Below, one piece after another: positions 1,719-19,648 of a stretch of DNA of 20,000 nt; position 1 is the first letter of the stretch; each line of letters starts with the position of its first letter. A program made the position numbers and the translations under genes. This DNA is from an uncultured virus (IMG/VR IMGVR_UViG_3300019378_000501). Its lineage: Duplodnaviria > Heunggongvirae > Uroviricota > Caudoviricetes. Under the pieces are notes generated by a model, which saw nothing but the letters and a program-made list of their open reading frames with translations, was not told the origin of the DNA and ran no database searches. Location: the IMG/VR virus record IMGVR_UViG_3300019378_000501; one strand, given 5' to 3'.

Positions 1719-2582
1719 ATGGTTGAATTGACTGTCGAAATCAATGAAACCGAAACCCTTGAAATCAGTGTAAAAACGCTGCACTTTCTCGGTTTCACGG
1801 ATCACGCCAAAATGACAAATCGGGATGCAACCGATCAGCACCCCATTGAGGCAATCACCGGGCTTGCGGAAAAGCTGAAAACACAGGATGAAACTGCCAC
1901 CCGGCAGGGAGAAACGCTTGCACAACAGGGCGAAACTCTGACTGCGCACGGCGAGGCGATCACAAAACACGGTGAAACCCTGTCGAGCCACGCCGAAGCC
2001 CTCTCCCAACACAGAGAGGTTATTACTGGACAGGGAGAAATCCTTGCCCAACATGGCAAGGTTTTAACTGCCCATTCTGAGGCACTGACAGCCGTTCGTG
2101 AGGACGTTACTGCGCAGGGTGAAACCCTCTCCCAACACGGCGAAGCCCTTGTGCAGCAAAACGAGAAGGTCACTCAGCAGGGCGAAACACTCGCACAGCA
2201 CGGGGAAGCGCTTTCCCAGCAGGGCGAGGAAATCAAAAATCATGGTGAGACACTTTCTCAGCACGGAGAAACCTTGACCGCGAACGGGGAGGCAATCACT
2301 AAACATGGTGAAGCCCTGTCCAAGCACGAAGAAACTCTTGCGCAACACGGGGAGACGATTTCTCAGCATACAGAGGGTATCAATGCCCACGGTGAAACTC
2401 TCACCCAGCACGGGCAGACGCTTTCTCAGCACGGGGAAACCCTTACGCAGCATACAGAAAGCCTTAACGCCCACGGCGAAACCCTGACCGCACACGGAGA
2501 AGCTCTTGAAAAGCTCAGTGCTTTTTCCGATAAAAAAATCGCGTCCGTTTCGGACGTACAGGAGGTTTTAACAAATGCCTGA
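1719..2582 (+). CDS. Coiled-coil fibre protein with heptad repeats
   Basis: Phage fibre-type motif DH..MTNRD..DQHPIEAITGL followed by 30 uninterrupted 7-aa repeats. Confidence 0.7.
   Translation: MVELTVEINETETLEISVKTLHFLGFTDHAKMTNRDATDQHPIEAITGLAEKLKTQDETATRQGETLAQQGETLTAHGEAITKHGETLSSHAEALSQHREVITGQGEILAQHGKVLTAHSEALTAVREDVTAQGETLSQHGEALVQQNEKVTQQGETLAQHGEALSQQGEEIKNHGETLSQHGETLTANGEAITKHGEALSKHEETLAQHGETISQHTEGINAHGETLTQHGQTLSQHGETLTQHTESLNAHGETLTAHGEALEKLSAFSDKKIASVSDVQEVLTNA
1884..2513 (+). repeat. 30 x 21-nt degenerate coding tandem repeat, consensus (H/Q)GETL(S/T)(Q/A)
   Basis: Read directly from the translation, QDETATR through HGEALEK. Confidence 0.95.
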
Positions 2583-3876
2583 TATGAGCCAAGTCCTTGA
2601 CCTTGCCGGTGTTGCTGCAATCCGTGATTGGGTTACGGCAAATTTCCTCAAGAAAACCGACGCTGAACAGATGATGGCATCTAAGATCCAGCTTACGTTC
2701 GGCCCGGATTTCGAGGGCAAAACCTACACAATCACCGGCGGCGCGAACGAAACCTATACTGGCACAGTTCCCGCAACCCTGATCGTGACACAGACCATTA
2801 AGACCCTCAACACCGAATACGTTGTCACCTGCACCAATGAGGACGGTGTTTCCTATGAACGCTCCGTTACCATCGGCAGCTACTACGGCGTTTACCAGAG
2901 TGAGTTCGTTTCCTTCCGCGCTTATCTGGTTTGTACCGCAGACGCAGGCTGTACGGTTATCGCTACCAACGGCAGCAAGACCTACTCCGGCGTAGCCGAC
3001 AGCAACGGCGAAGTTACCCTGAATATCGGCGCAACCGGCACTTATTCCGTTACCGCCTCCATGGGCGGCTCCACTACGGAGGCCGTTACCGTGGAAGTCA
3101 CCGAAGCAGGCGCAACTTACACCTGCAAGCTGCCCTCCCTGTCTGGCCCTGAGATCGTTTCTTGGGCTGACGGTACTGACGAACAGATCGCAGCTATGGT
3201 CGCAGCTCTGGACGACGGTACGATCTCCATTGAGGATACCGGTTGGGCCGTGGGCGACGAGCGCGTTGTTACTCTGTCCGCTATGGCTGCAACCGGCGTT
3301 GGCGAATCCCACGCCGAACAGTCTGTAACTCTGGTGCTGATGGACAGCCAGCACTTCACGCTGACCGAAGCAACCGCTGGTGGCGACACCAAGGATCACT
3401 TTGTCGTTGGTTTGAAGAACTCTCTGAACGAGAAGGGCTACATGAACAGTTCCAACACCAACAGCGGCTCTTGGAGCGGCTGCGCTCGTCGTACATGGTG
3501 TAACGACGTATTCCGTGCGGCAATCCCTGAAACGCTCCGGGGTTGCTTCAAGCAGTTCAAGGTTCCTACCGCTACGACCTACAATGGCAGCTCTGTCACT
3601 GAAACCGATGATTACTTTGCCCTGTTTGCAGAAAAAGAAATCTTCGGTTCTTGCACCTACTCCAACTCTACGGAGGCTGCGGCCCTGTCTCAGATCGAGT
3701 GGTATGCTACTGCGGCGAACCGTAAAAAGACCGTCAACGGGTCTGCCGACCTCTGGTGGGAGCGTTCTCCTCATTCCAGCACCAGCAGTTACTTCTGTAT
3801 TGTCACCTCCGACGGCGCTGCCAATGTCGGCACCGCCAGCAGCACTATTGGCCTCGCGCCCTTCGGCTGTATCTAA
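2575..3876 (+). CDS. DGR target protein 1, probable receptor-binding/tail protein with C-terminal variable domain (DUF6273/C-type-lectin-like)
   Basis: The last 45 codons are VR1. Thr-rich beta-sandwich-like N-terminal half; C-terminal W..C.RRTWCN..F, F...EKEIFG, WWERSP and GLAPFGCI motifs. Confidence 0.9.
   Translation: MPDMSQVLDLAGVAAIRDWVTANFLKKTDAEQMMASKIQLTFGPDFEGKTYTITGGANETYTGTVPATLIVTQTIKTLNTEYVVTCTNEDGVSYERSVTIGSYYGVYQSEFVSFRAYLVCTADAGCTVIATNGSKTYSGVADSNGEVTLNIGATGTYSVTASMGGSTTEAVTVEVTEAGATYTCKLPSLSGPEIVSWADGTDEQIAAMVAALDDGTISIEDTGWAVGDERVVTLSAMAATGVGESHAEQSVTLVLMDSQHFTLTEATAGGDTKDHFVVGLKNSLNEKGYMNSSNTNSGSWSGCARRTWCNDVFRAAIPETLRGCFKQFKVPTATTYNGSSVTETDDYFALFAEKEIFGSCTYSNSTEAAALSQIEWYATAANRKKTVNGSADLWWERSPHSSTSSYFCIVTSDGAANVGTASSTIGLAPFGCI
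3739..3873 (+). repeat. DGR variable region VR1
   Basis: 135-bp ungapped match to 4426..4560 with 18 mismatches, all opposite TR adenines. Confidence 0.97.
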
Positions 3877-3887
3877 AATCTCAAAAT

Positions 3888-3908
3888 CCGCGCCCCTTGT
3901 GGGCGCGG
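3888..3908 (+). promoter_or_regulatory. DGR homing hairpin/cruciform downstream of VR1
   Basis: ccgcgccc-cttgt-gggcgcgg, an 8-bp GC stem 14 nt after the VR1 end. Absent after the TR. Confidence 0.85.
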
Positions 3909-3927
3909 TTCATCAAGGAGAAAAGTT

Positions 3928-4392
3928 ATGTCTGTTCCAACTTGGATGCGGTCAGAATCCAAAACAAAGTTTCTTTGGAGGCTTTACCGGCTTAATATCC
4001 GCATAGGTGAAATCGTTGCAAACCACCCGACAAAGTATCGGGCGAATTACGGCGACAGTCTGATTACCACGGCTCTTGACGCGCTGACACACGCGCAGGT
4101 GGGCAACGGTATTTATATGCACGTCGCCATTTCGGAATCCGAATATCAGCTCCGGCGCAGGCATCTTCGCGAAGCGAAAGGCTACGTCGAAGCGGTGGCT
4201 ACAACAGCTTACATCTATTTGGAGCTGACCGCGAAAGCGGACGGCGTAAAGAAGGAAAAGATACTGAAACAGGAGGAAGAAATCGGCCTTGAGTGCGCCG
4301 AAATCTCCCGAATGATTAAGGGTGTTTTAGACAGTGACCGACGGATCTACAACGCCCGGTATCGCGGCCAACAGCCTACCTTAACTGAATAA
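3928..4392 (+). CDS. avd: DGR accessory variability determinant (Avd-like four-helix bundle)
   Basis: 154-aa basic, helical protein between the target and the TR; AAGGAG RBS. Called mainly from position and size. Confidence 0.8.
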   Translation: MSVPTWMRSESKTKFLWRLYRLNIRIGEIVANHPTKYRANYGDSLITTALDALTHAQVGNGIYMHVAISESEYQLRRRHLREAKGYVEAVATTAYIYLELTAKADGVKKEKILKQEEEIGLECAEISRMIKGVLDSDRRIYNARYRGQQPTLTE

Positions 4393-4425
4393 TCAAACTG
4401 CGGTTACGTCCTGCAACACACGCTT

Positions 4426-4560
4426 GGGTCTGCCAACAACTGGTGGGAGCGTTCTCCTAATTCCAGCAACAGCAATAACTTCTGTAATGTCAACTCCGAC
4501 GGCACTGCCAATAACAACAACGCCAGCAACACTAATGGCCTCGCGCCCTTCGGATGTATC
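4426..4560 (+). ncRNA. DGR template repeat (TR)
   Basis: Intergenic between avd and RT. Contains 14 AAC/AAT codons and 37 adenines, and aligns to both VR1 and VR2. Confidence 0.97.
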
Positions 4561-4750
4561 GTGAAAACGTCAGAAAAGTAGCGACAGTGAAATTAGACGG
4601 GATACATATTATCTTTTTACCCCTTTTTATGATACAGGAGGATGTGACCGCGCCGCCGATGAACGGCGGTGAATTAACACCGTGGCTCAGTCAGGCGCTT
4701 GCACCGGGCTGATACTGCATACGCAGGCACGGAATATGGGGATTTTTCGT

Positions 4751-5788
4751 ATGACTTTTGAAGAAGTCTTTTCAGTAGAACATCTGTTAATTTGCGCGCG
4801 AGAATGTCTACGCGGCGTAACGTGGAAACAATCTGCACAGATGTTTGAAGTAAATCTGCTGCAATGGGTGGCAACGCTTCACAAGGAGCTTATGCAAGGC
4901 ACTTACCGCTCACGAGGCTTTCACAACTTCACAATTTGCGAACGCGGAAAGCGACGTGAAATTTCATCTGTCCACATCTCCGAACGATGTGTACAGAAAT
5001 GCCTTGTGAAATTCGCATTGAAGCCCACCATTGTTCCACGCCTGATCTATGATAACGCCGCAACCATAGAGGGACGCGGAACGGAATTTGCAGTAAAACG
5101 ACTGCGGGAGCATCTGCGCTACCATTTGGCGCGTTACGGGAGAACCGGCGGGATCTTGACTATCGATTACCACAATTATTTCGGCAGCATAGATCACGAC
5201 CGGCTCTTGGAGATGTACCGCGGGATAATTGACGACGATCGGGTATATGACCTGATCGTCTATTTTATTCGCTGTTTTCCCGGTGACAAGGGCCTCGGCT
5301 TAGGATCGGAGATCTCGCAAATCAGCGCGGTTTTCTACCCTAACAGCCTTGACCACTATATCAAGGACGTGCTTATGGTGCATGGTTACGCTCGATACAT
5401 GGACGACAGTTACATTATCAGCGACGACCTTGATAAGCTACGGGAATACCGGGACATCATCACCCGAAAATCTGCGGAATTGGGGCTTGAACTCAATGCC
5501 AAAGTGACGCAGATAACGAAATTCGACGGCGGCAGCTTTGTCTACTTGAAGAAACGCGTTTTTATCACCGAAGATCATCGGATCGTGATGCGGCTCGTTC
5601 CGAAAAACATCACGCAAAGACGCAGAGGTATCAAGAAACAAAGGAAAATGCTTGCGGACGGTAAGATTTCGCCCGAATCTATGCGGCAATCATTCAATTC
5701 TTGGCGTGGATACGCCGAAAAATACGATAGTTATACATCAATCAAACGTCTGGAAACGCTGATGGACACCGTGACCGGCGGGCTATAA
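4751..5788 (+). CDS. DGR reverse transcriptase
   Basis: Motifs ERGKRREI, DYHNYFGSIDH, GLGLGSEISQ (DGR-type SQ) and YARYMDD; no RNase H or endonuclease domain. Start uncertain (4682 GTG, 4736 or 4751 ATG). Confidence 0.95.
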   Translation: MTFEEVFSVEHLLICARECLRGVTWKQSAQMFEVNLLQWVATLHKELMQGTYRSRGFHNFTICERGKRREISSVHISERCVQKCLVKFALKPTIVPRLIYDNAATIEGRGTEFAVKRLREHLRYHLARYGRTGGILTIDYHNYFGSIDHDRLLEMYRGIIDDDRVYDLIVYFIRCFPGDKGLGLGSEISQISAVFYPNSLDHYIKDVLMVHGYARYMDDSYIISDDLDKLREYRDIITRKSAELGLELNAKVTQITKFDGGSFVYLKKRVFITEDHRIVMRLVPKNITQRRRGIKKQRKMLADGKISPESMRQSFNSWRGYAEKYDSYTSIKRLETLMDTVTGGL

Positions 5789-6333: not shown

Positions 6334-8385
6334 ATGAGCCTGACTGGAAAAACCAACGCGCAGAAGATCTGGAACTACCTGATCGCAAAGGGCCTGACCC
6401 CCGCCGGTGCCGCCGGTCTGATGGGCAACCTTTACGCCGAAAGTGGTTTCAAGGCAACCAATCTGCAAAACACCTACGAAAAGAAGCTGGGGCACACCGA
6501 CGCATCGTATACCAAAGCGGTAGACGATGGCTCTTACACCAACTTCGCAAAGGACGCTGCTGGCTACGGTCTGGCCCAGTGGACTTACCACACCCGGAAA
6601 GCCGCGCTGCTGGCTTTCGCTCAGGCTGCGGGTAAGTCTGTGGGCGATCTGGAAACCCAGCTCGACTTTCTTATCAAGGAGATGTCTGAGGGCTACAGCG
6701 GTTTGCTGAACACCCTCAAAACGACCACCTCCATTCAGACGGCATCCGACCTCGTGCTGACCCAGTTTGAGCGCCCCGCTGATATGGGTGACACCGTTAA
6801 GGCGAAACGCGCAGGATACGGGCAGGCCTACTACAACGAGTTCGCCGGATCTTCCGCTGCTGCGGAGGAGGAGCGCTACACGGAGGCACAGTTCGACATT
6901 ACCACCCCCATCAAGACTGCGGCCCAGCTCGCGGCAAAAGCAAGCCTTGTAGCCAAGAACTACAAGACCCTGTACGTCATGGGCTGTTTCGGCGCTCCCA
7001 TGAACGCCGCAAATAAAGCCCGGTACTGCGCAAACCACAGCTACAACAAGGCTGCGGATCGTACCGCCATGATTCAGGCAGCAAGCGCCGACACTTTCGG
7101 TTTTGATTGTGTTTGTCTTATCAAGGGCCTGCTGTGGGGTTGGAAGGGCGACACCAGCAAGACCTACGGCGGCGCGTCTTACGCGGCCAACGACGTTCCT
7201 GACATCGGCGCGGACAGCATGATTAAAGTCTGCTCTGATGTTTCCACCGACTTCTCCAATGTCGAGGTGGGCGAGGCGGTTTGGTGTGAGGGCCACATCG
7301 GTATCTACATCGGCAACGGTCTGGCCGTGGAATGTACTCCCCGCTGGAAGAACTGCGTTCAGATCACCGCCTGTAACTGTGACGTAACTGGGTACAACCG
7401 TCGGAACTGGACGAAGCACGGCAAGCTGCCCTACGTCACCTATGACGAAAACTCTACCGAAAAGGTAGAGGATACGAAGTCTGAGGATACGAAGTCTGAG
7501 GATGCGGCGGCTCCGAAAGAACTGAAAGTGGGCGACATTGTTACGTTCACCGGCACGAAGCACTACGCAAACTCCAACGCTGCGACCGGCCCCGCCTGCA
7601 AGCCCGGTAAAGCGAAGATCACTGCAATCAACGCAAAGGGCAAGCACCCCTACCACCTGATCCGTGTATCCGGCGGCGGCTCCACCGTATACGGATGGGT
7701 CGACACCAACGACATCGAAGAAGCAGCGCGGGTCGAAGCTACACAGCCGGAGGCCGCGACAAAGAAAACGAGCTGGGAGGTCGGCGATGAAGTGGACTTC
7801 ACCGGCACGATCCACTATGCGAGTTCCAATGCGACGCGCGGCGTATCCTGCAAACCCGGTAAAGCGAAAATTACCGCGATCTACGCCAAGGGTAAGCACC
7901 CCTATCACCTGATCCGTGTATCCGGCGGCGGCTCTACCGTATATGGATGGGTCGACGCTTCTACTTTCGGCGCGGACGAAGTGGAGGACGCTGCGGAGGA
8001 GCCTGACCCCGACGACTGGGACAGTATTAAATACTTCAAGAAATCCGAGTTCGCCTGTAAGTGCGGGCGATACTGTGACGGCTATCCCGCCGAGGTCGAT
8101 ATGACGATGGTGAAATACGCCGACGCGATCCGCGCGCGACTGGGCGTACCTGTGTCCGTCAACAGTGGTTTGCGCTGTAAACAGCACAACGCCAACGTGG
8201 GCGGCGTGTCCAACTCTCAGCACCTTTACGGCGGCGCTGCGGACTTGGGTTGCCCTGCCGGAAAGACCGTCGCTCAGATGGTTGCTGCGGCTGAGGCCGT
8301 CATGGGCAACACCGGCGGCATCGGTACTTATTCTTGGGGTATTCACATCGATTCCCGGAAAACCAAATCCCGTTGGAACGGATAA
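6334..8385 (+). CDS. Multidomain endolysin: phage-lysozyme-2-like, NlpC/P60-like, two SH3-like repeats, peptidase M15-like
   Basis: GNLYAESG/GYGLAQWT/FERP; FDCVCLIKG...GHIGIYIGNG; two KVGD.V...GWVD repeats; EFACKCG/SGLRC..HN/SQHLYG.AAD/IHID. Confidence 0.85.
   Translation: MSLTGKTNAQKIWNYLIAKGLTPAGAAGLMGNLYAESGFKATNLQNTYEKKLGHTDASYTKAVDDGSYTNFAKDAAGYGLAQWTYHTRKAALLAFAQAAGKSVGDLETQLDFLIKEMSEGYSGLLNTLKTTTSIQTASDLVLTQFERPADMGDTVKAKRAGYGQAYYNEFAGSSAAAEEERYTEAQFDITTPIKTAAQLAAKASLVAKNYKTLYVMGCFGAPMNAANKARYCANHSYNKAADRTAMIQAASADTFGFDCVCLIKGLLWGWKGDTSKTYGGASYAANDVPDIGADSMIKVCSDVSTDFSNVEVGEAVWCEGHIGIYIGNGLAVECTPRWKNCVQITACNCDVTGYNRRNWTKHGKLPYVTYDENSTEKVEDTKSEDTKSEDAAAPKELKVGDIVTFTGTKHYANSNAATGPACKPGKAKITAINAKGKHPYHLIRVSGGGSTVYGWVDTNDIEEAARVEATQPEAATKKTSWEVGDEVDFTGTIHYASSNATRGVSCKPGKAKITAIYAKGKHPYHLIRVSGGGSTVYGWVDASTFGADEVEDAAEEPDPDDWDSIKYFKKSEFACKCGRYCDGYPAEVDMTMVKYADAIRARLGVPVSVNSGLRCKQHNANVGGVSNSQHLYGGAADLGCPAGKTVAQMVAAAEAVMGNTGGIGTYSWGIHIDSRKTKSRWNG
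7522..7956 (+). repeat. Duplicated ~61-aa putative cell-wall-binding domain (7522..7704 and 7774..7956)
   Basis: 252-nt offset; the final 69 nt of each copy differ at only 4 synonymous C/T sites. Confidence 0.9.
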
Positions 8386-8438
8386 ACCATTCACTGTAAA
8401 TCGCGCCTGCGGGCGTAAATTTGAAAGGAGATATTATT

Positions 8439-8828
8439 ATGATCCCTGAAATCATCATCGAAACCGTCGTGCAGATCCTCGCCTGCCTGCTTGTCACCCT
8501 GATCGGCGTGCTGGGCGCTTGGCTGACCGCCAAGATCGGCAAAAAGGCAGAACTGACCAACATCGGTCTGGCTACCAATGAGGTTGTCAGTGCCGCGCAG
8601 CTCACCGTTCTTGAGTTGCAGCAGACCGTTGTTGAACAGTGGAAGGCTGCAAGTGCTGACGGCAAGCTGTCCGAAGATGAAATTAAAGAGTTGGGTGTTA
8701 TGCTGATTCAGAAAACTATGGAAAAGATGTCTGCATCTGCGAATAACCTGCTTGTCTCTGCGGGCGTGGACATCACCGCCATTATCAAGGGCGCGGGTGA
8801 GGCCATGATCCAGAGCATGAAGAAGTAA
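8439..8828 (+). CDS. Holin (LL-H-like)
   Basis: AAGGAG RBS; single N-terminal transmembrane helix; directly after the lysin. Confidence 0.7.
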   Translation: MIPEIIIETVVQILACLLVTLIGVLGAWLTAKIGKKAELTNIGLATNEVVSAAQLTVLELQQTVVEQWKAASADGKLSEDEIKELGVMLIQKTMEKMSASANNLLVSAGVDITAIIKGAGEAMIQSMKK

Positions 8829-8841
8829 TATCCGCACCATT

Positions 8842-8876
8842 GGGCGCACGGGCTTCGGCCTGTGCGCCCTTTTTTT
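8842..8876 (+). terminator. Rho-independent terminator of the late/lysis operon
   Basis: gggcgcacgggc-ttcg-gcctgtgcgccc followed by T7. Confidence 0.92.
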
Positions 8877-9185
8877 ATGCCCAAAATGTCACCACATGGT
8901 TGTCCACACCGCATTTTTAATCTGTTGCAAACTGTTGTTGTGTTGACAAACGCGAGAAACAGATTTTTAAGGTGGTGACGCGAGTGTTGCCCTAAAGTGA
9001 CGACAGAAAAAGCCTTGCGGTTCTTAGGTTTTTCTATATTTGTCAACACTTCAACACTTATTTCTAATTGACTTATAAAAAGTAGTATTTAGGCAGTATA
9101 CGCAACGCCTAAAACGCCTGAGCGCACACATCTGTACGCGCGTGCGCGAGTGTTGTTGCCCTGTAATTTTGGCTTGCATAAATCC

Positions 9186-9262
9186 AGTCAAATTTTTTTG
9201 ACAAAACTATTGACAAGTCAAAAGTCTTTTGCTAATATAATGATAGTCAAAAACATTTGACT
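9186..9262 (+). promoter_or_regulatory. Sigma-A-type promoter overlapped by three 18-bp palindromic operators (AGTCAAA-N4-TTTGACT)
   Basis: TTGACA 9210-9215, 17-nt spacer, TGn-TAATAT 9230-9238 (TATAAT also at 9236-9241). Operators at 9186-9203, 9216-9233 and 9245-9262. Confidence 0.8.
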
Positions 9263-9301
9263 GAAACGACAATCGAAAAACGACATACGGAGGAATTAAC
9301 C

Positions 9302-9517
9302 ATGGAAAAAACCAATAAGGGCCTGTACATCATCAAGAAGTCCGAAAGCACCGTCAAGGGCCGCAACGTAGTCCTTACCCGCAAGACCAATTTGGCAGGC
9401 GACGTTCTGCATGGCGTGGTTCTGGAAAACACCCGGAACGGTCGTCACCAGAAAATCGGAACCTTCGCCGGTATTCTCCCCGCGTGGAACGTCTACAAGG
9501 CACTCGTGAAAAAATAA
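9302..9517 (+). CDS. Hypothetical basic protein, first gene of the accessory operon
   Basis: GGAGG RBS before ATG 9302; 71 aa. Confidence 0.7.
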   Translation: MEKTNKGLYIIKKSESTVKGRNVVLTRKTNLAGDVLHGVVLENTRNGRHQKIGTFAGILPAWNVYKALVKK

Positions 9518-9578
9518 GCCGAAACGGGCAACAGCCCGTAGCCGGGAACCGCCCCACCTGGCCTGACGATGGCAGGGC
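9518..9578 (+). ncRNA. Type II hammerhead ribozyme with pseudoknot
   Basis: gcc-GAAA-cgggc(aaca)gcccg-UA-gccggg(loop)ccuggc-CUGACGA-u-ggc-a-gggc; all three stems pair. Confidence 0.85.
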
Positions 9579-9610
9579 ATCACGACAAACGACAATCGGA
9601 GGTAACGATT

Positions 9611-9814
9611 ATGTTTCATTACAAAGTTAAATATTCTTGGCTGACCGGGATCGGCAGCGAGCGGGTTTATGAGTACGACATCTACATTGCAGAGAATTGT
9701 CAAGAGGCTGCCGACCTTTGCCGTAACGAATACGGTCATTTGCCCGGTATGCGCGTCGAGTTCATCTGGAAAAGCAATTACGGCTCTTGGCTGGCCGTCA
9801 ACGCATGGAGGTGA
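9611..9814 (+). CDS. Hypothetical protein
   Basis: GGAGGT RBS before ATG 9611. Confidence 0.65.
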   Translation: MFHYKVKYSWLTGIGSERVYEYDIYIAENCQEAADLCRNEYGHLPGMRVEFIWKSNYGSWLAVNAWR

Positions 9815-9819
9815 GCGCT

Positions 9820-10212
9820 ATGAAGGTAGTAAAAAACGACCGCGAGCTGCGGGTCGCTTATGAAATCCTTACCCTCCTGACCGATGGGAGCCACACGTTC
9901 GCCAACCCTGAGAGGCTGTCCCAGTGCATCATCGAAACAAAGCGCGCAATGCGCCGGTACACTCACCGCGAAACCGGCTACGACCGCCGGATCATCAAGG
10001 ACGACGGCATGGATGGTTATCTCAGCCTTGAGCGGCTGCCCGACGACATTCGGGATCTGGAAGAAGCCAACCGTTTCTTTGAGCAGTTTATGACCTACCA
10101 TTACCGGCCCTCTGCCTACGATTGCACCGGGCAGGCTATGACAAATTGGTTCAAAGTGTTCCCCCGAAACGGCGGGTTCTACGCCTACCATTCTGTCAGC
10201 TTCGACGTTTAA
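9820..10212 (+). CDS. Hypothetical phage protein
   Basis: GGAGGTGA RBS before ATG 9820; contains YDCTGQ. Confidence 0.7.
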   Translation: MKVVKNDRELRVAYEILTLLTDGSHTFANPERLSQCIIETKRAMRRYTHRETGYDRRIIKDDGMDGYLSLERLPDDIRDLEEANRFFEQFMTYHYRPSAYDCTGQAMTNWFKVFPRNGGFYAYHSVSFDV

Positions 10213-10225
10213 GGAGGCGGCAAGG

Positions 10226-10396
10226 ATGTTCGAGAAACGCTTTTGCCCCTACTGCGGCGCTCCGTTATCTGACGGCTGTGATTGCGCCGCAGAGTTGGAG
10301 CGGTACGAAAACGAGCTGATCGAGGAACTGGAAGATCGCCAGTGCATGACAGCTTGGCAGCAGGACTTGATTGACCTGCGCAGGTTTGAGCGATAA
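10226..10396 (+). CDS. Small Zn-ribbon-like protein (56 aa; not in the ORF track)
   Basis: AAGGAGG RBS; MFEKRFCPYCGAPLSDGCDC...RRFER*. Confidence 0.7.
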   Translation: MFEKRFCPYCGAPLSDGCDCAAELERYENELIEELEDRQCMTAWQQDLIDLRRFER

Positions 10397-10408
10397 GGAG
10401 GTTTTGAT

Positions 10409-10603
10409 ATGGCTACCTACAAAGTGACGCGTGAAGGTTATCGCGCAACGATCCTCACCCGCGAGGGTGAAACCCGCGTTTCCCGGCTCTATCCCCGGTG
10501 CGACCGTGAGCTTTTGGAGCAGGCGTGTGAACGCATGAGTAAGATCGGCGAAGCCGTTTCCTATTCCATCGATTGGGTTAGGGTTCAGACAGATGCAGGG
10601 TAA
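10409..10603 (+). CDS. Hypothetical protein
   Basis: AAGGAGG RBS; tightly packed with neighbours. Confidence 0.7.
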   Translation: MATYKVTREGYRATILTREGETRVSRLYPRCDRELLEQACERMSKIGEAVSYSIDWVRVQTDAG

Positions 10604-10617
10604 GGGAGGACAACCAC

Positions 10618-10872
10618 ATGAATGAGTTTAATCAGGGCTACGAAATCATCGCAGCCGAAACCTATCAGATCACCGAGAAAGGCAGAGAGTGCCGGATCGT
10701 GTTAGGCCGCATGGAAACCAAGTACGGCGCGATGTTTGTCACTTGGGAGAGTACCACCGGCGCTATCGGCGGCGACGGATACGCGGACTACTTTTGGGGC
10801 CATTACCTCGACAACGAGAAAGCGGCTCGCGCCGACTATCACCGCCGACTGCTTGAGAAGTATGAGAGCTGA
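10618..10872 (+). CDS. Hypothetical protein
   Basis: GGAGG RBS; FVTW...YFWGHY..A..DY..R motif of the kind seen in mobile-element proteins. Confidence 0.7.
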   Translation: MNEFNQGYEIIAAETYQITEKGRECRIVLGRMETKYGAMFVTWESTTGAIGGDGYADYFWGHYLDNEKAARADYHRRLLEKYES

Positions 10873-10888
10873 GAAAGGAGCTGTCACC

Positions 10889-11050
10889 ATGTACGAAATC
10901 GTGTACGACTACGACGACGGGTGGAGCGAATCCCGAAACAACGTCGAAACGTTCGAGGGTTCGTGGTCTGAGTTGCAAGACCACATCAAGAAGATGCGCC
11001 GCAACGGTTGCTACAACATTTACGCGACAAGCGTTAAGGAGGGCTTATGA
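10889..11050 (+). CDS. Hypothetical protein (53 aa)
   Basis: AAAGGAG RBS before ATG 10889; stop overlaps the next ATG. Confidence 0.65.
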   Translation: MYEIVYDYDDGWSESRNNVETFEGSWSELQDHIKKMRRNGCYNIYATSVKEGL

Positions 11051-11454
11051 AACGACTGACTTACTGGAACGGTAAGAAATGGATCTTGCCGCAGGGATCT
11101 TGGCGAGAGATCGCCGACCGACTGGCCGCCTATGAAAATACCGGCTTGGAGCCTGACGAGATCGCTCAGTTACAGGCCCACAGTCCTGTTGAGAACGATT
11201 TTCCAGTCGGCGGCGACATCTTTACCGCAGTAATCGTAGCCCGTGAGGGCGGCGGCTATGTCCCCTACATCGACCCGGTAAACTGCTGTGCTTTCCTCCG
11301 TGCGTCGGAGATCCGGGAGCTGGCAGACAATCCCGATGTTATCAACCAGCGCGGCGCAAACCATCTTGTTATTGAGGTTTACCCGGATCGTTGGCACGTC
11401 GCTCAGGTGGGCGGTTATACCCCGGACAGCGGTATGTATACCAAACTTTACTGA
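11047..11454 (+). CDS. Hypothetical phage protein
   Basis: MKRLT...RLAAYENTGLEPDEI motif common in phage accessory proteins. Confidence 0.7.
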   Translation: MKRLTYWNGKKWILPQGSWREIADRLAAYENTGLEPDEIAQLQAHSPVENDFPVGGDIFTAVIVAREGGGYVPYIDPVNCCAFLRASEIRELADNPDVINQRGANHLVIEVYPDRWHVAQVGGYTPDSGMYTKLY

Positions 11455-11469
11455 TCGGAGGATTTGAAT

Positions 11470-12387
11470 ATGAACTATTACGAGATCAACGAAGATGCTG
11501 CCAAACGCGCTAAGGACGCGAACAGCTTTTTCGACTACGTTCCCGGTTCCGCAACTCACCACTACCGTGCGGAAGTGGATAGGGCTGCTGAGATCGCAGC
11601 CAAGCAGAAAGAGCGTGTCGACCCTATGTACCACGCCAAGATCGACGGTCTGTTGGAGAAGTTCGCCCGCGAGCTGGCCGAAGTTATCAATCATCGAAAC
11701 GAGATTGACGCACGCGTACCCTCTGTGATGGTCGCCGGTGGCAGCAATTTCCCTGTCGCGGCTAAGAATCGGCAGAACGCAGCTCGTGAGCGTAACGACG
11801 CGAGGTATGCAGAGGTTCAGGAGATTTTGCGGAAGATCCAGAGCGTCGGCATGGGCGGCATTATGAGCGACGATAAAAACGCCGTCGCCAAGCTGACCGC
11901 GAAGTTGGAAAAGCTCGAAAAGCATCAGGCACTTATGCGAGCCGCCAATGCTGCGGTTCGCATGAAGGATGTTGAGAAGGGCGACGCTAAGTTAACGGAG
12001 TTGGGTTACACCGCAGAGGAAATCAATCAGCTCCGCACTCCCGATTTCTGCGGTCGTCTCGGATACCCTGATTATGAGATGAAGAATAACAACGCGAACA
12101 TTCGCCGGATTAAGGAGCGTATTGCCGCTTTGGAGAAAGAGGCGCAGCGCGCCGCCGAGAATGTCGACGCGGAGCCGGTCAAGGGCGACGGCTATGAGTT
12201 GATTGAAAACGCCGAGATTGGGCGTATTCAGTTTGTTTTCGACGGTAAGCCCGACGAGTATACCCGCGCGCTGTTGAAGTCTAACGGTTTCCGTTGGTCG
12301 CCCTCTCAAGGCGCTTGGCAACGGATGCTGAACGATAACGGCAGATATGCGGCCCAGCGGATTATCGAAAAACTGAACGCAGAATGA
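11470..12387 (+). CDS. DUF3560-related protein of phages/conjugative elements
   Basis: PSVMVAGGSNFP, I.SDD..A..KL, NNNANIRRIKERI and RIQ..FDGKPD...R..LK..GFRWSP...AWQR motifs. Confidence 0.6.
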   Translation: MNYYEINEDAAKRAKDANSFFDYVPGSATHHYRAEVDRAAEIAAKQKERVDPMYHAKIDGLLEKFARELAEVINHRNEIDARVPSVMVAGGSNFPVAAKNRQNAARERNDARYAEVQEILRKIQSVGMGGIMSDDKNAVAKLTAKLEKLEKHQALMRAANAAVRMKDVEKGDAKLTELGYTAEEINQLRTPDFCGRLGYPDYEMKNNNANIRRIKERIAALEKEAQRAAENVDAEPVKGDGYELIENAEIGRIQFVFDGKPDEYTRALLKSNGFRWSPSQGAWQRMLNDNGRYAAQRIIEKLNAE

Positions 12388-12421
12388 CGGATAAGCTACA
12401 CGAAAGACGGAGGCGACAAGC

Positions 12422-12583
12422 GTGAACAACGTTTATGAAGGTTTTGCAATCATCGGTATTTACCTCGCACCGCTTATGGCGGCCCTCGCTATCGGCGGTA
12501 TCTTTTCAGATTTCATCTTGCCCCGGTGTCCACGCTTGCTCTGTTTTCTTGAGTGGGTGTTCGGGATCGACTTGGGGCCATGA
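12422..12583 (+). CDS. Small membrane protein (53 aa; not in the ORF track)
   Basis: GGAGG RBS and GTG start; MNNVYEGFAIIGIYLAPLMAALAIGGIFSDF... Confidence 0.6.
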   Translation: MNNVYEGFAIIGIYLAPLMAALAIGGIFSDFILPRCPRLLCFLEWVFGIDLGP

Positions 12584-12596
12584 GAAAGGAGCTTCA

Positions 12597-12791
12597 ATGT
12601 TCATCAAAGCGACCATCAAAGTTACCAAGGAGAACACGATCTGGATTAACCTCGATAACGTCACAATGGTAACTCCCTGCATCAACGGTACGACATTGCA
12701 TTTCACCGGCGGCGGGCAGGTCAACGTTGTCGAGGATTTCGACACGATCCGTGAGCGGATCACGTTCGCAGAAGCAATGAGAAAGGTGTGA
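12597..12791 (+). CDS. Small protein, FlbD-like pattern
   Basis: AAAGGAG RBS; IWINLDNV..V......T.L.F..G..V.V.E..D.I. Confidence 0.55.
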   Translation: MFIKATIKVTKENTIWINLDNVTMVTPCINGTTLHFTGGGQVNVVEDFDTIRERITFAEAMRKV

Positions 12792-12994
12792 CAACTGTGG
12801 GATATTTCGATACCCTTGCAAAGTTCTTAGGGATGTTCCCTAACTTTCTCGAATCGGTGGCGTTTTGGTCGCCGGTTCGAGACAAAAATACTATTCGTGT
12901 CGAGCTGAAAAGCGGTCAAAAGCTGCTGTTTACCTACTGGAATGACCGGGAGTGGAGCCTGACCGCCGTAAACGGCGCAGTTCGGAAAGTTTAA
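12788..12994 (+). CDS. Hypothetical protein
   Basis: GTGA overlap with the preceding gene. Confidence 0.6.
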   Translation: MTTVGYFDTLAKFLGMFPNFLESVAFWSPVRDKNTIRVELKSGQKLLFTYWNDREWSLTAVNGAVRKV

Positions 12995-13013
12995 CCGTAA
13001 GGAGGAATGACCA

Positions 13014-13496
13014 ATGCTTACCGAGATCACCGGCGACCTGTTGACGGTTCGCGCCGGAATTATCTGTCACCAAGTAAACTACTACGGTGTCATGGGTGGC
13101 GGTGTCGCCGCTGCCATTGCTGATAAGATTCTGTCAGCCGAACAATATGCCGCCTACTCCATGTACTGCAAGCAGGCTGGCCGTACAGCCTTAGGCAGCG
13201 TTCAGTTCTTAGGATGCGCCCCCGGTCTGGTCGTCGCCAATATGTTCTGTCAGGACGAAGCTCTTGCCCAGAGAGGCGGCAACCTTTGCATCACTGACTA
13301 CGACCTTATGTACCAATGTTTCAAGCGCGTGCGCAATATGGCACAGATCCAAAAGATGCGGGTTTACATCCCGCGCAATATTGGCTGCGGCATCGCCGGT
13401 GGTAACTGGGATACCGTGAAGCAGATCATGGAGGACGTTTTCGGGAAAGGCCCTGTGGACGCTTTCATCGTAGGGCGGGAGGTTGGAAATGGCTAA
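13014..13496 (+). CDS. Macrodomain protein (Poa1p/TARG1-like)
   Basis: GDLL...IICHQVN..GVMGGGVA and IGCGIAGGNW..V motifs. Confidence 0.85.
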   Translation: MLTEITGDLLTVRAGIICHQVNYYGVMGGGVAAAIADKILSAEQYAAYSMYCKQAGRTALGSVQFLGCAPGLVVANMFCQDEALAQRGGNLCITDYDLMYQCFKRVRNMAQIQKMRVYIPRNIGCGIAGGNWDTVKQIMEDVFGKGPVDAFIVGREVGNG

Positions 13497-13791
13497 AATC
13501 GTCGAATGTGTTTCCGGCATTGATGGTAACGGCTATCAGTATATGTTGGGTTGGCGAGCGCCACTGTGGTTGGATGCACACGGCCTGAGAAATGGGCCAG
13601 CATGGGCGCTCCGACTGCACCACGATAAGAACCGTTCCGAACTGGAAACCTTTATTTGGGTTGGTGGCACACCTCGCAACGGAAAAACTGTCGCGGTGTT
13701 CAAAGACGAAATCATTACCGAGGGCGAACTTCCGGCACTACTGAAAAAGCATAACATCCCGTTCGTGGAGGTCGAAGATGGCAAGGCGTAA
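13489..13791 (+). CDS. Hypothetical protein
   Basis: GGAGG RBS; 8-nt overlap with the macrodomain gene. Confidence 0.65.
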   Translation: MAKIVECVSGIDGNGYQYMLGWRAPLWLDAHGLRNGPAWALRLHHDKNRSELETFIWVGGTPRNGKTVAVFKDEIITEGELPALLKKHNIPFVEVEDGKA

Positions 13792-14131
13792 GAGCTACAC
13801 GAACGCGGATCAGATCCGCAGCATGACCGACGATCAGTTGGCAAAAGCACTTTTAGATGCGAACGATACCGGCGTTTCCATTCCTTTCTGTCAAGAGCTG
13901 CCGGAGTGTGAGGCGCTGTTGGACACCGGGATTATCCCGGATGAAAAGTGTCTACAGTGCGTCAAGGAGTGGCTGAAACGGCCTGCATTTACGAGGGGGG
14001 GGAGTATCGCATGGATAATAAACTGGGTAAGGGTGTTCGTTTTGAACGTATCCGTCGAATCACCGGCTATCTGGTCGGAACCTTGGATCGCTGGAATAAT
14101 GCCAAGAAAGCTGAGGAACGTGACCGTGTAA
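13778..14131 (+). CDS. Hypothetical Cys-containing phage protein; true stop probably 14018 if the G8 tract is G7
   Basis: TNADQIRSMTDDQLA...C...WL motif; reads through the G8 at 13995-14002. Confidence 0.6.
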   Translation: MARRKSYTNADQIRSMTDDQLAKALLDANDTGVSIPFCQELPECEALLDTGIIPDEKCLQCVKEWLKRPAFTRGGSIAWIINWVRVFVLNVSVESPAIWSEPWIAGIMPRKLRNVTV

Positions 14132-14187
14132 AGCACGGCATTGTTATCAGGAAGGAGGAAGAAAATCATGCCCAACATGAAGTCTGA
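14011..14187 (+). CDS. Stand-alone glycyl-radical domain resembling the NrdD C-terminus (58 aa)
   Basis: FERIRRITGYLVGTLDRWNNAKKAEERDRVKH; GGAG RBS. Confidence 0.85.
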   Translation: MDNKLGKGVRFERIRRITGYLVGTLDRWNNAKKAEERDRVKHGIVIRKEEENHAQHEV

Positions 14188-14401
14188 TGAATACTGGCGC
14201 GGTAAACCCGGAGCCAAGTACGGTATCTGGAACGATGTCAAAAAGGAGTTCCAGTTCGGTATTTGCGAGGACACGCCCGCGTTGGCAGAAGCTCGCCTCA
14301 GACAACGGATTGGCCGCGACAGCCACAAGTGGAGGTTCCAAGTTCGACGGTTGACCGGCGAGGCGCTACACCGAGCGATGGAGGCGGCGAATGAAAAGTG
14401 A
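14168..14401 (+). CDS. Hypothetical protein
   Basis: AAGGAGG RBS before ATG 14168. Confidence 0.6.
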   Translation: MPNMKSDEYWRGKPGAKYGIWNDVKKEFQFGICEDTPALAEARLRQRIGRDSHKWRFQVRRLTGEALHRAMEAANEK

Positions 14402-14606
14402 ACCGCAGCAGATCCCCGCAGCGAAAAGTTGTAAATGCGGTGAGCGCCCGGTTTACTTTACGTTTGACGATCCCGCCGGTGTTATTTTCCACCGCATGAT
14501 GTGTCCGCGTTGCGGAAAGAAGGTAACGAGTTTATCAAAGATTAAAGCGATTTTTCGTTGGAACGAATACATAACGGAGGTGATGTCGTGGTTGGTGAAG
14601 AAATGA
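14391..14606 (+). CDS. Lar (restriction alleviation)-like Zn-ribbon protein
   Basis: CKCG...CPRCG...AIFRWN pattern. Confidence 0.5.
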   Translation: MKSEPQQIPAAKSCKCGERPVYFTFDDPAGVIFHRMMCPRCGKKVTSLSKIKAIFRWNEYITEVMSWLVKK

Positions 14607-14800
14607 TTGAGCGCGAGGACAAGCGCCGTCGTCATGCGTTGACATTGGCGCAGGTCGAATGGGCTTACGAGAAATGGTGTTTGGGTTATACCTTGGCTCA
14701 GATTGCCGAAGCCCTCCACGTCTCGTCCCGCACGGTATCGCGTGCGTTTGAATTGTTGGGCAAGCCACGAGTACGGCCCAAGCTGATTTATGGAGGCTAA
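14588..14800 (+). CDS. Small helix-turn-helix DNA-binding protein
   Basis: GYTLAQIAEALHVSSRTVSRAF; GGAGGTGA RBS before GTG 14588 (alternative ATG 14603). Confidence 0.75.
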   Translation: MVGEEMIEREDKRRRHALTLAQVEWAYEKWCLGYTLAQIAEALHVSSRTVSRAFELLGKPRVRPKLIYGG

Positions 14801-14803
14801 ATT

Positions 14804-15187
14804 ATGAGAGGCGTTGTATTTACAACCGATAACCAGATGTACGTCAAGGACTTCGGACGGCCCTTGTATGAAACCATCGGCAAAGAGGTCGACGGTTGGA
14901 TCGAAGTCGTTCACCCTGTCGGGCTTAAAAGAGCGCCCAGCAAACTTTGTTTCGTCTGCAATGAAGAAGGTCTGTTGCGCGGTCTGCCTTTGAACGCGTT
15001 CGGCAGTGTGCTTTACGGCACGCAGCACCACGGACACCCTATTGTCGGTAACATCGTGTTTATGCGTGAGGGCATTGTGAACGGCGAGCCTGATTTTGTC
15101 GAGCTGACCGACACTGATATTCAGTGGATTAAAAAGTTGGCTCGTGACGTGTCCGGCGACCTGATCCGGGAAGTTGAAGCGAGGTGA
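14804..15187 (+). CDS. DUF3846-like protein
   Basis: VDGWIEVV...VCNEEGLL.GLPLN...IVGNIVF. Confidence 0.75.
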   Translation: MRGVVFTTDNQMYVKDFGRPLYETIGKEVDGWIEVVHPVGLKRAPSKLCFVCNEEGLLRGLPLNAFGSVLYGTQHHGHPIVGNIVFMREGIVNGEPDFVELTDTDIQWIKKLARDVSGDLIREVEAR

Positions 15188-15193
15188 GATCTC

Positions 15194-15517
15194 ATGCCTG
15201 AAATCGAATTGCAGCGATGCCCCAACTGCGGCGGCCCTGCGAAACTCCACACGAAACACGGAAAGTTCCGCTACGAGTGCGACGGCGACTGTTGGACTTC
15301 CACCGGCCTGTATAGCGCGCAGGAGGGGGCCGCCCGTGAATGGAACCGACTGAAAGGGCGGGTGCCTGAACGGGATTGTCTGATGTGCAAGCACTCCATG
15401 TCCTGTGATTCTCCTGACGGCCCACAGTTGGTCTGCTTTTGTTGTGCTGGACACGAAGGTGAGGAAACGTATGTTGATGAACCCTGTGAGAATTATTCGG
15501 GAGCATGGTTCTTATGA
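15194..15517 (+). CDS. Lar-like Zn-ribbon protein with an extra Cys-rich C-terminus
   Basis: LQRCPNCGGPA...CDGDC...AAREWNR, then CLMCKH...C..CC...C. Confidence 0.6.
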   Translation: MPEIELQRCPNCGGPAKLHTKHGKFRYECDGDCWTSTGLYSAQEGAAREWNRLKGRVPERDCLMCKHSMSCDSPDGPQLVCFCCAGHEGEETYVDEPCENYSGAWFL

Positions 15518-15628
15518 GCGACACCTAAAATCGAAAATCCGTAAGTTTAATCGCGTATTTTGAGAAAAAATCTCAAATTCGCGTAGTTAAAAACGAAAAT
15601 ACGCAAATTAGGAGGTATCTAAGAAACA

Positions 15629-15958
15629 ATGGGACTTAGCATTACGATCACTCGCCGGAAAGGGAAAAAGTGTCCTCATTGTGGTGAGCTGGTGGGGTAT
15701 GAGGTGCTTGCGGATCTGATGGGTGGTGGCCGAAACTGGTATCCGATTTTAGAGCGTTTCGGCTACTATGTACCCTATGAGTCGCGCACCGAAGAAAACG
15801 ACTGGTATGGAAAAGACATGGTGTTGACCGCCGAACAAGCCGATGAACTGTACCGTTATTCTCAGCACCACGAGCTTTATTGTCAGGGCGGTCTTAGGTC
15901 GGTGATCGCTCAGGCGTTGCATGAGGGCGACCAGATCGTAATTAACGCGGATTGGTAG
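15629..15958 (+). CDS. Hypothetical protein with CPHCG motif
   Basis: AGGAGGT RBS. Confidence 0.7.
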   Translation: MGLSITITRRKGKKCPHCGELVGYEVLADLMGGGRNWYPILERFGYYVPYESRTEENDWYGKDMVLTAEQADELYRYSQHHELYCQGGLRSVIAQALHEGDQIVINADW

Positions 15959-15968
15959 GAGGTAAAAC

Positions 15969-16154
15969 ATGGCAGCACCAAATAACTCCCGATGCCCCCG
16001 ATGTAAAGCAAGGCTCCGGGTCAGATCCGGGCAGTATGTAAGCTATACCTGCGGACGCTGCGGCTATTCCAAAACAGAGGAGCCGGATAATATGACCAAA
16101 GAGTTTCTTTGGGGGCCGCTGTTCGAGACGAGGAGGATGAAACGTGGCAAGTGA
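15969..16154 (+). CDS. Small Zn-ribbon protein
   Basis: CPRC...CGRCG; AGGAGGT RBS. Confidence 0.65.
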   Translation: MAAPNNSRCPRCKARLRVRSGQYVSYTCGRCGYSKTEEPDNMTKEFLWGPLFETRRMKRGK

Positions 16155-16398
16155 AAAACCCTCCGTTCATATCGGAGATACTTTGTTCATCATCGGAAAG
16201 TACAGTTATTCGCCGGACGAGGCCCCGTCAATCATAGAGGTGCAAGTGGCGTACGATCTCCATAAGCGGCATTTCGCCTATCCTAAATCGGGTCGTGGCA
16301 CATTCAGCTTTGCAACCGGCGACATGGGAAAAACGGTATTTACGAACCGCAAGGACGCAGAGCGCGTTTTAAGGAGGATTTTAGATGCGTCCGATTGA
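16144..16398 (+). CDS. Hypothetical phage protein
   Basis: GAGGAGG RBS and GTG start; GKTVF....AE C-terminal motif. Confidence 0.65.
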   Translation: MASEKPSVHIGDTLFIIGKYSYSPDEAPSIIEVQVAYDLHKRHFAYPKSGRGTFSFATGDMGKTVFTNRKDAERVLRRILDASD

Positions 16399-16579
16399 TG
16401 GCAATGGTAGAAAGTACAAGCTGGAGGAATACGACCTCAAGGCTCTCCGGGAGGCACGGCAGCGAATTATGGTCGTTTACAACTACCATTACGGCGCTCC
16501 CCGTGCGTCTGGTACGATCAAGCGGATCGAAACCATCCTTGCAAAAATCGATCGTTTGATAAAAGAAAGTGAGGATTAA
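16385..16579 (+). CDS. Hypothetical protein
   Basis: AAGGAGG RBS. Confidence 0.65.
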   Translation: MRPIDGNGRKYKLEEYDLKALREARQRIMVVYNYHYGAPRASGTIKRIETILAKIDRLIKESED

Positions 16580-16583
16580 CCCG

Positions 16584-16742
16584 ATGGCAAACAGATTCTA
16601 TGCAAAAGGCGAGCTGAAAGACGAAAAAATCGTTGTAGCGCTCAAACGTGCTGCCAACGATTATGAAAACGGCGAGATTGCAGAGGTGCATGACCTGTTG
16701 TTGGAAATCGCCGCAGCTATCGAAGAATGGGAGGACGCGTAG
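16584..16742 (+). CDS. Small helical protein (52 aa; not in the ORF track)
   Basis: GAGG RBS; MANRFYAKGELKDEK...EEWEDA* fills the gap exactly. Confidence 0.65.
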   Translation: MANRFYAKGELKDEKIVVALKRAANDYENGEIAEVHDLLLEIAAAIEEWEDA

Positions 16743-17110
16743 TGATTTTTGAAAACGAATCAATACGAAGTCGTTTTACAGCGGCTTTCCCGAAGTTTTA
16801 TATCAATCACAATTTGGAGGCGATTGTCCATCCGCGCAGAAATTCTTATTTCCTGCTGTCCGATGTGCGTACCGAAAAGGATCTGATCGCCAAAATCCTT
16901 GAATGGCTTTCCAGAGAGGCGGCCAAATCTATTACTAAAGAATCTCAAAAATATCACCTTGACGGGATCAATGCTTTTCTTGGTACTGATTTTTCACAAG
17001 AGGACATGATGCAAATTTACACCTATCTTGGAAACAGGTGTAACCATGATAAGACGCTACACTTTATTGATAGCGGGTATGACCTGTCCGTATTGACGAA
17101 GGAGGCCTAA
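16742..17110 (+). CDS. Hypothetical phage protein
   Basis: GGAGG RBS and GTG start; K.LEWLSR.A.K and IYTYLGN..NH motifs. Confidence 0.7.
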   Translation: MIFENESIRSRFTAAFPKFYINHNLEAIVHPRRNSYFLLSDVRTEKDLIAKILEWLSREAAKSITKESQKYHLDGINAFLGTDFSQEDMMQIYTYLGNRCNHDKTLHFIDSGYDLSVLTKEA

Positions 17111-17111
17111 C

Positions 17112-17620: not shown

Positions 17621-17626
17621 AAAATA

Positions 17627-18553: not shown

Positions 18554-18557
18554 AATT

Positions 18558-19337: not shown

Positions 19338-19342
19338 TAATC

Positions 19343-19642: not shown

Positions 19643-19648
19643 AAAAGG

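Follow-up and report, generated by a model that had tools for sequence, protein, structure and literature searches.

Type II hammerhead ribozymes (Rfam RF02276, Hammerhead_II) were described as a class in 2011, together with the pseudoknot between their loop I and their tail and with their prophage setting (Perreault et al., PMC3088659). Tandem prophage hammerheads of types I-III are reported there to cleave in vitro, and for one set cleavage was also seen in vivo in E. coli. The clustered hammerheads of Clostridium scindens, Azorhizobium caulinodans and Agrobacterium tumefaciens lie on either side of single genes or small gene groups within operons of prophages; clustered prophage copies cut polycistronic transcripts of about 2 kb in vitro, the A. 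tumefaciens set also doing so in vivo in E. coli. The processing of long phage transcripts is the role proposed for prophage hammerheads in that paper (PMC3088659), a role still without proof according to a 2019 review (PMC6765202). In Desulfovibrio vulgaris cells, self-cleavage of three type II hammerheads, which have hypothetical and phage-like genes nearby, was detected by cyPhyRNA-seq through 2',3'-cyclic phosphate and 5'-OH ends (PMC8782182). Here an element of this kind is described in a stretch of 20,000 nucleotides, referred to as the window, from an uncultured virus (IMG/VR record IMGVR_UViG_3300019378_000501). The 61 nucleotides at 9518-9578 (+ strand), which lie between two small genes called gene 1 and gene 2, are almost certainly a real member of the type II hammerhead family. 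Going by its sequence and setting, the element is probably a genuine pseudoknot-stabilised ribozyme carried in an operon messenger RNA (mRNA), where it would cleave and separate gene 1 from the genes that follow.

The window copy shares its permutation, core, pseudoknot and co-directional phage or prophage gene setting with the type II ribozymes of RF02276 as described in PMC3088659, and differs from them in scoring below the Rfam cut-off, in having A and not C at the cleavage site, in its four pseudoknot pairs and in a bulged U. Whereas the C. scindens, A. caulinodans and A. tumefaciens ribozymes form arrays of two or three, the operon in the window has a single one. The likeness to the D. 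vulgaris hammerheads, which belong to a different host phylum, is one of type and setting. With the class, its pseudoknot and its prophage context known since 2011, the window copy is one more, ordinary member of an abundant family. Its arrangement as a single ribozyme in a two-gene cassette offers a clean system for the hypothesis that such ribozymes uncouple the mRNAs of neighbouring genes.

The hammerhead motif and its relatives

In the reading of window positions 9300-9800 the upstream open reading frame (ORF) ends with TAA at 9515-9517 and the hammerhead begins with the next base. All of its parts are on the + strand. The 5' strand of stem II, GCC (9518-9520, C9520 being C11.1), is followed by the core nucleotides GAAA (9521-9524; G12 A13 A14 A15.1) and by the stem III hairpin (9524-9539), which consists of the A15.1-U16.1 pair (A9524-U9539) and of CGGGC (9525-9529) paired to GCCCG (9534-9538) around the loop AACA. 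The GUA triplet occupies 9538-9540, and its A9540 is A17 (H17), the cleavage-site nucleotide according to the hammerhead consensus. Next comes the stem I hairpin (9541-9562), in which GCCGGG (9541-9546) and CCUGGC (9557-9562) form six base pairs (bp), one of them G-U, and close the 10-nt loop I, AACCGCCCCA, with the pseudoknot strand GCCC at 9551-9554. The second part of the core, CUGACGA (9563-9569; C3 U4 G5 A6 C7 G8 A9), is separated by an extra, bulged U (9570) from the 3' strand of stem II, GGC (9571-9573, G9571 being G10.1), and the tail provides the other pseudoknot strand, GGGC (9575-9578). The initial annotation, made from the sequence alone, had placed the same elements, which are all found base for base, and had noted that the ribozyme begins directly after the stop codon, as it does. 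Every nucleotide that defines a hammerhead core (C3-A9, G12 A13 A14, A15.1-U16.1 and H17) is present. Of the pairs flanking the core, G9541-C9562 and A9524-U9539 form directly, while G9571-C9520 requires U9570 to be bulged out. As in other type II hammerheads stems I and III end in loops and stem II is open, and the pseudoknot of loop I with the nucleotides just 3' of stem II, for which at least 4 bp are expected in this type, comprises the 4 bp of GCCC/GGGC.

Such a combination hardly arises by chance. A strict descriptor (the core, with no fewer than 3 bp in stem II and 5 bp in each of stems III and I) scanned over both strands of the window finds 9518-9578 as its only site and has no match in 300 dinucleotide-preserving shuffles; a relaxed descriptor gives one site in the window vs three in total over 100 shuffles. 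Family membership is supported by a covariance model made from 107 phage relatives, the window copy being excluded. In a search of 30.7 kb, the window plus the rest of the virus record, it gives this copy 59.8 bits (E 5.3e-15) and the next-best match only 10.6 bits, and by this model the hammerhead is the single one of its kind in the 30.5-kb record. The thermodynamic fold is modestly better than that of shuffled sequences (z -2.07), and the opposite strand of the region has a similar folding energy, so that folding energy alone is little informative. The stem III hairpin also appears in the fold of 9480-9540, and the minimum-free-energy fold contains an outer helix (9504-9509/9580-9585) around the ribozyme, one strand of which lies in the last codons of gene 1.

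When window positions 9200-10300 were compared by blastn with 50,697 phage records, 9515-9579 was the only part that matched, at 80% identity over 65 nt, in Faecalibacterium phage FP_Mushu and two near-identical records. The Mushu element (NC_047913.1, 2235-2299) lies between the co-directional genes gp06 (stop at 2237) and gp07 (start at 2318), and its 'hypothetical protein' label in the blast match stems from the overlap with the last 3 bases of gp06. Both copies have the same stem lengths, a 10-nt loop I, a GGGC tail and the bulged U, and both start at the TAA of the upstream gene. Several of the differences are compensatory: stem III is CGGGC/GCCCG in the window vs CGCCC/GGGCG in Mushu, and the first stem I pair is G-C vs A-U. 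Another stem I pair is G-U in the window and G-C in Mushu, H17 is A vs C, N7 is C vs A, and the Mushu pseudoknot has 6 bp compared to 4 bp; with RF02276 the Mushu copy scores 34.5 bits, the window copy 24.8. The genes around the Mushu copy are unrelated to those in the window, with no blastn similarity beyond the ribozyme, and inspection of the Mushu flanks by eye revealed no counterpart of the outer helix. The GenBank/RefSeq record of FP_Mushu carries no hammerhead annotation. Standard annotation thus misses real copies, by the Rfam threshold in the case of the window and in the GenBank record in the case of Mushu.

Further relatives were collected by a pattern search in which only stem II, GAAAC, GU and CUGANGA-UGGCAG were specified. 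The same architecture, including the extra U, was found in at least 116 IMG/VR viral stretches and at least 134 bacterial-genome loci, and the bacterial matches listed include Oscillospiraceae, Ruminococcus, Faecalibacterium, Planctomycetes, Streptomyces, Paenibacillus, Bifidobacterium and Akkermansia. The extra U before stem II, pointed out in the initial annotation, is therefore present but is no peculiarity of this copy. All 107 relatives used for the model have it, and it is carried regularly by much of the Rfam family and is no defect of the window copy, because 20 of 23 U-bearing copies tested (at 20 loci) pass the RF02276 cut-off; two of the others score 34.3 and 30.5 bits and the third was unlisted at E <=0.1. 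A sister copy that lacks the U (viral locus L008, 290-351) has the same GGC/GCC stem directly abutting A9. The text of PMC3088659 contains nothing on a U between A9 and G10.1, and the variant may appear in the figures or alignment datasets of that paper. In the window copy the AUG formed by A9, the extra U and G10.1 is in frame with the downstream ORF. Its use as a start codon was considered and rejected: only 26 of 106 copies have this AUG in the frame of the ORF that follows, and in 18 that frame stays open through. Some of the related viral loci also contain other ribozyme classes, namely twister-sister (74 bits), twister-P5 (64.9 bits) and pistol (63.6 bits), 200-900 nt away from the hammerheads (L004 722-805, L007 1541-1594 and L009 1886-1953), and locus L008 has three hammerheads within 1.3 kb (290-351, 995-1059 and 1545-1608), two of which are without the bulged U. 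This agrees with the known clustering of ribozymes in phage DNA.

The proposed pairing is borne out by covariation in an alignment of 108 distinct sequences, which was compared with 500 shuffles. Standard pairs fill 94.9% of the cells vs 73.1% after shuffling and at most 41% with the pairing partners slid, and the covariation score is 0.573 vs 0.152 and at most 0.115, respectively, a value reached by none of the 500 shuffles. Changes on both sides of a pair are seen in four of six stem III pairs, all five stem I pairs and three of four pseudoknot pairs, while stem II is invariant because it is fixed by the search pattern. Parsing sequence by sequence succeeded for 104 of the 108. In 83 of these 104, loop I forms at least four consecutive Watson-Crick pairs with its own tail, compared to 6.0% of 9,352 combinations of loops and tails from sequences with different tails; the commonest pseudoknot lengths are exactly 4 bp (41 sequences) and 5 bp (40 sequences). 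Together with the compensatory changes in Mushu, the covariation of stem I, stem III and the pseudoknot shows that the initial annotation, which had recognised a pseudoknotted type II hammerhead, was right in every detail of the structure.

Placement between genes and the exchanged cassette

The position of the ribozyme relative to genes is regular across the family. Among 107 distinct copies, with ORFs of at least 40 codons on the same strand considered, the upstream ORF is flush with the ribozyme in 58, at offset 0 in 30 and at offset +1, with the last G shared, in 28. Its end falls within -2 to +1 of the ribozyme in 77 of the copies; 12 have no same-strand upstream ORF of this size within 40 nt. 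On the other side the next ORF of at least 40 codons begins no more than 30 nt past the ribozyme end in 85 of 107. The ribozyme usually fills the whole gap from the stop codon to the ribosome-binding site (RBS), and these regularities bear on the function of bacterial and phage hammerheads. The neighbouring genes themselves are diverse. A scan of 141 hammerhead-adjacent ORFs (loci L002 and L004-L083) and the two of the window against PHROGs left most without a family and gave scattered matches (Mu-type transposase four times, MazF-like, Lar-like, HNH, RecE-like and regulators), with no constant partner gene among them, as is also stated for hammerheads in PMC3088659. The idea that the hammerhead is a preferred breakpoint of recombination was dropped: for 76 copies with 600-nt flanks, similarity was discordant across the ribozyme in 20/27 similar pairs (0.74), vs 21/33 (0.64) and 7/13 (0.54) at control junctions 300 nt away, which is not clearly more.

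In the window the gene upstream of the ribozyme, gene 1 (9302-9517, +), encodes 71 amino acids from an ATG at 9302, preceded by the RBS GGAGGA (9290-9295, +), and its longest ORF starts with TTG at 9257 (86 aa). Gene 2 (9611-9814, +) encodes 67 amino acids from an ATG at 9611 with a Shine-Dalgarno-like GGAGG at 9598-9602 (+). Neither belongs to a Pfam or PHROG family or has relatives in the viral contigs searched, and an Atlas look-up of gene 1 returned only viral clusters without a name (0.85-0.86). An intrinsic-terminator-like hairpin of 12 bp (10 of them G-C) followed by 7 T (8842-8869, +) ends the lysis cassette upstream and is, judging from its form, the upstream limit of the transcription unit that bears the ribozyme. 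A 340-nt non-coding stretch separates it from a promoter-like site (9210-9238, +; TTGACA-17 nt-TAATAT with TG before the -10 element, 10 of 12 consensus matches), which is the presumed start of the accessory operon transcript and would place the mRNA start near 9245. Both sites fit the view of the initial annotation that gene 1 is the first gene of an accessory operon. In the region 8880-9240 the motif gcgagtgttg..ccct is seen by eye at 8980-8993 and again, with a ttg insertion, at 9146-9162, alongside several TTGACA/TGTCAA words that are possibly operators of phage regulators.

The closest relative phage found, L255, shows 85% amino-acid identity in the 131-aa gene that follows gene 2. It aligns to window positions 8448-9298, a block with the holin, regulatory region, promoter and 5' untranslated region that reaches the base before the gene 1 ATG, and again from 9807 onward (gene 3 on). 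Opposite 9299-9806, L255 has one unrelated 112-aa gene (1649-1990) in place of gene 1, the hammerhead and gene 2. By this comparison the ribozyme is part of a swapped cassette of gene 1, hammerhead and gene 2, and it is dispensable for expression of the rest of the operon because L255 does without it at the same locus.

Proposed cleavage and alternative explanations

We infer that the hammerhead is transcribed, that it cleaves and that expression is affected along the following lines. The element would be transcribed as part of the + strand operon mRNA starting near 9245 and fold once RNA polymerase has passed about 9578, with stems I and III forming as hairpins, the open 3-bp stem II clamping the two ends and the 4-bp GCCC/GGGC pseudoknot keeping stems I and II parallel. 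Self-cleavage between A9540 and G9541 would, by the chemistry given in PMC8782182, provide A9540 with a 2',3'-cyclic phosphate and G9541 with a 5'-OH. By the NUH rule, GUA is a site at which cleavage is good. The 5' product would consist of gene 1 with its stop codon intact and a 23-nt tail that ends in the stem III hairpin and the cyclic phosphate, and the 3' product would have its 5'-OH base-paired in the stem I hairpin, followed by gene 2 as first cistron and the downstream genes. Joined only by the 3-bp stem II, the products should separate, making the cut effectively irreversible, and gene 1 and the rest of the operon would become separate mRNAs, each with a stability and translation of its own. 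That cleavage after 9540 would separate gene 1 and leave a 5'-OH end, as put forward in the initial annotation, is the standard hypothesis for the class. The hammerhead is probably active in vivo, perhaps slowly, and for a role in uncoupling the mRNAs the chances appear about even.

A broader and rather speculative reading, held to be improbable, makes the ribozyme a portable insulator between cistrons which moves together with small cassettes of accessory genes and is possibly gated by ribosomes terminating on the upstream gene. Its flush position between stop codon and RBS would then provide each cassette gene with a defined mRNA, through a hairpin-capped 3' end with the stop codon kept and a hairpin-capped 5'-OH leader. 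If true, phage hammerheads would be the natural equivalent of synthetic ribozyme insulators, which would explain why hammerheads are common in mosaic early and accessory regions. The glmS ribozyme and RiboJ are functional analogies only, in that an mRNA which cuts itself thereby determines what becomes of the downstream fragment or frees a downstream gene from upstream sequence; glmS is of another class and needs a metabolite cofactor, and RiboJ is synthetic. Nothing indicates ligand dependence for the window hammerhead.

A stronger form of gating is given little credence. In it a ribosome at the gene 1 stop codon would cover the 5' arm of stem III along with stem II and GAAA, cleavage would depend on the level of gene 1 translation, and the ribozyme would serve as a translation-sensing switch and not as a constitutive processing site. 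The flush stop codon of 58 copies and the -2 to +1 spacing of 77 would suit such a switch, but are equally explained by genome compaction and by keeping the stop codon on the 5' product. The outer helix 9504-9509/9580-9585, with one strand in the last gene 1 codons, would clamp the ribozyme, but it has no covariation support and no equivalent seen by eye in the Mushu flanks. Hammerheads moreover fold and cut fast and irreversibly, and a transient occlusion may just delay the cut.

The preferred reading, in which cleavage splits gene 1 off from the other operon genes, has to be weighed against a number of observations that speak against it. A search with Rfam hammerhead models, suggested as a check in the initial annotation, does align the element end to end with RF02276 (model positions 1-66 of 66, permissive thresholds), but its 24.8 bits are under the gathering cut-off of 37 bits (E 0.005 on 301 nt, 0.18 on 11 kb and 1.2e-4 as a single family over the 30.5-kb record), and a default Rfam gathering scan of the window yields no hammerhead, a tmRNA being its only report. 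The relatives were picked by a pattern derived from conserved parts of the window copy itself; stem II and the core match by construction, which limits the independent evidence to stems I and III and the pseudoknot. A at H17, as in the window copy (A9540), occurs in 2 of the 104 parsed copies, with C in 101 and U in one. The pseudoknot is at the minimum of 4 bp, and in a type II construct described in PMC3088659 truncation of the pseudoknot from 6 to 4 bp made cleavage about 20-fold slower. L255 has no hammerhead at the locus, where the best family-model score is 9.3 bits. The RNA data, contigs from two sequencing runs (shares 0.07 and 0.25), cover 9200-9292 and 9705-10400 and leave out 9293-9704, hence they are neutral on ribozyme cleavage. 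The low Rfam score comes from the Rfam seed, from A17 and from the GCCC/GGGC pseudoknot subtype and not from an absent feature, because the model of 107 relatives gives 59.8 bits. RF02276 treats the U9570 bulge as an insertion, sister copies of the same pseudoknot subtype score about 34 bits, and no other Rfam family competes for the site.

Some of the same observations could indicate a decaying or very slow hammerhead, derived from an active ancestor, now too slow to matter and left over in a recently acquired cassette, which is unlikely. A17, found in so few relatives, the minimal pseudoknot and the G-U pair in stem I would be the slowing features, a rate loss on truncating the pseudoknot is reported for one construct, and the RF02276 score lower than that of the Mushu copy with its same architecture and the absence from L255 point in the same direction. 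The core, however, is fully consensus, and H17 permits A by the criteria given in PMC3088659. A pseudoknot of exactly 4 bp is shared by 41 of the 104 parsed relatives, no stem is broken, and the changes relative to Mushu compensate instead of disrupting. The window copy may perhaps be slower than the best copies, because trimming of the pseudoknot slowed the one type II construct.

A system for RNA excision, circularisation or RNA mobility that works with a second ribozyme is very improbable. Related loci do have two or three clustered hammerheads as well as twister-sister, twister-P5 and pistol neighbours, and the possibility is raised in PMC3088659, but the text of that paper also relates that its authors detected no spliced or circular products. 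The window hammerhead is the sole one of its kind in the 30.5-kb record, and no other ribozyme family appeared within 8800-19760 at E <=5 or over 30.7 kb at E <=1, the latter scan having limited sensitivity as it also missed this hammerhead. That the element is not a ribozyme at all, but a chance pair of hairpins acting at most as an ordinary intercistronic stabiliser or attenuator, might be read from the sub-threshold Rfam score and the modest z of the fold, but is effectively refuted by the blastn match, in which exactly this 65-nt stretch is conserved in an otherwise unrelated phage, by the family model built without the window and by the shuffles without a descriptor site, and no T run follows the hairpins.

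Prophage setting and other features of the window

Small genes on the + strand fill about 10 kb after gene 2 and include some matching Macro (13014-13496), DUF3846 (14804-15187), Lar (15194-15517, below the Pfam cut-off) and Dam (17860-18270), a gene set that looks like one for anti-restriction or host takeover. The window is the right part of the IMG/VR record, which ends at window position 19759 inside a tmRNA gene, the 3' part of which is found at 19738-20000 (- strand, 87.6 bits) and is cut off at the window end. The virus element is a prophage integrated at ssrA, because the virus record ends within the tmRNA gene, and the last approximately 240 bases of the window are host DNA.

A complete diversity-generating retroelement (DGR) with two targets is spread over 2575-5788 and 18486-19337. 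It consists of a reverse transcriptase (RVT_1, 4682-5788), a 135-nt template repeat (4426-4560) and two variable repeats, the first (3739-3873, 87% identity) at the end of a DUF6273 gene (2575-3876) and the second (19188-19322, 76% identity) at the end of another DUF6273 gene (18486-19337) about 15 kb away. The suggestion in the initial annotation that the transcript downstream of the ribozyme may include the second target is possible, as the target is on the same strand about 9 kb downstream and no strong + strand terminator was found between it and the hammerhead; beyond a possibly common transcript no link between ribozyme and DGR was found.

On the left side of the window the ORF at 1707-2582 contains an array of 21-nt (7-codon) repeats (1905-2510) and has weak Pfam matches to DUF16 and to the bacterial collagen middle region; it probably encodes a fibrous tail or fibre protein. 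The lysis cassette that precedes the terminator-like hairpin includes a holin-like gene (8421-8828) and an endolysin of 683 aa (6334-8385) with Phage_lysozyme2 and Peptidase_M15_3 domains. A 159-nt direct repeat within the endolysin gene (7546-7704 and 7798-7956, 84% identity) corresponds to a duplicated internal domain, and the weak similarity of the protein to those of Faecalibacterium, Acutalibacter and Roseburia phages hints at a host among the gut Clostridia.

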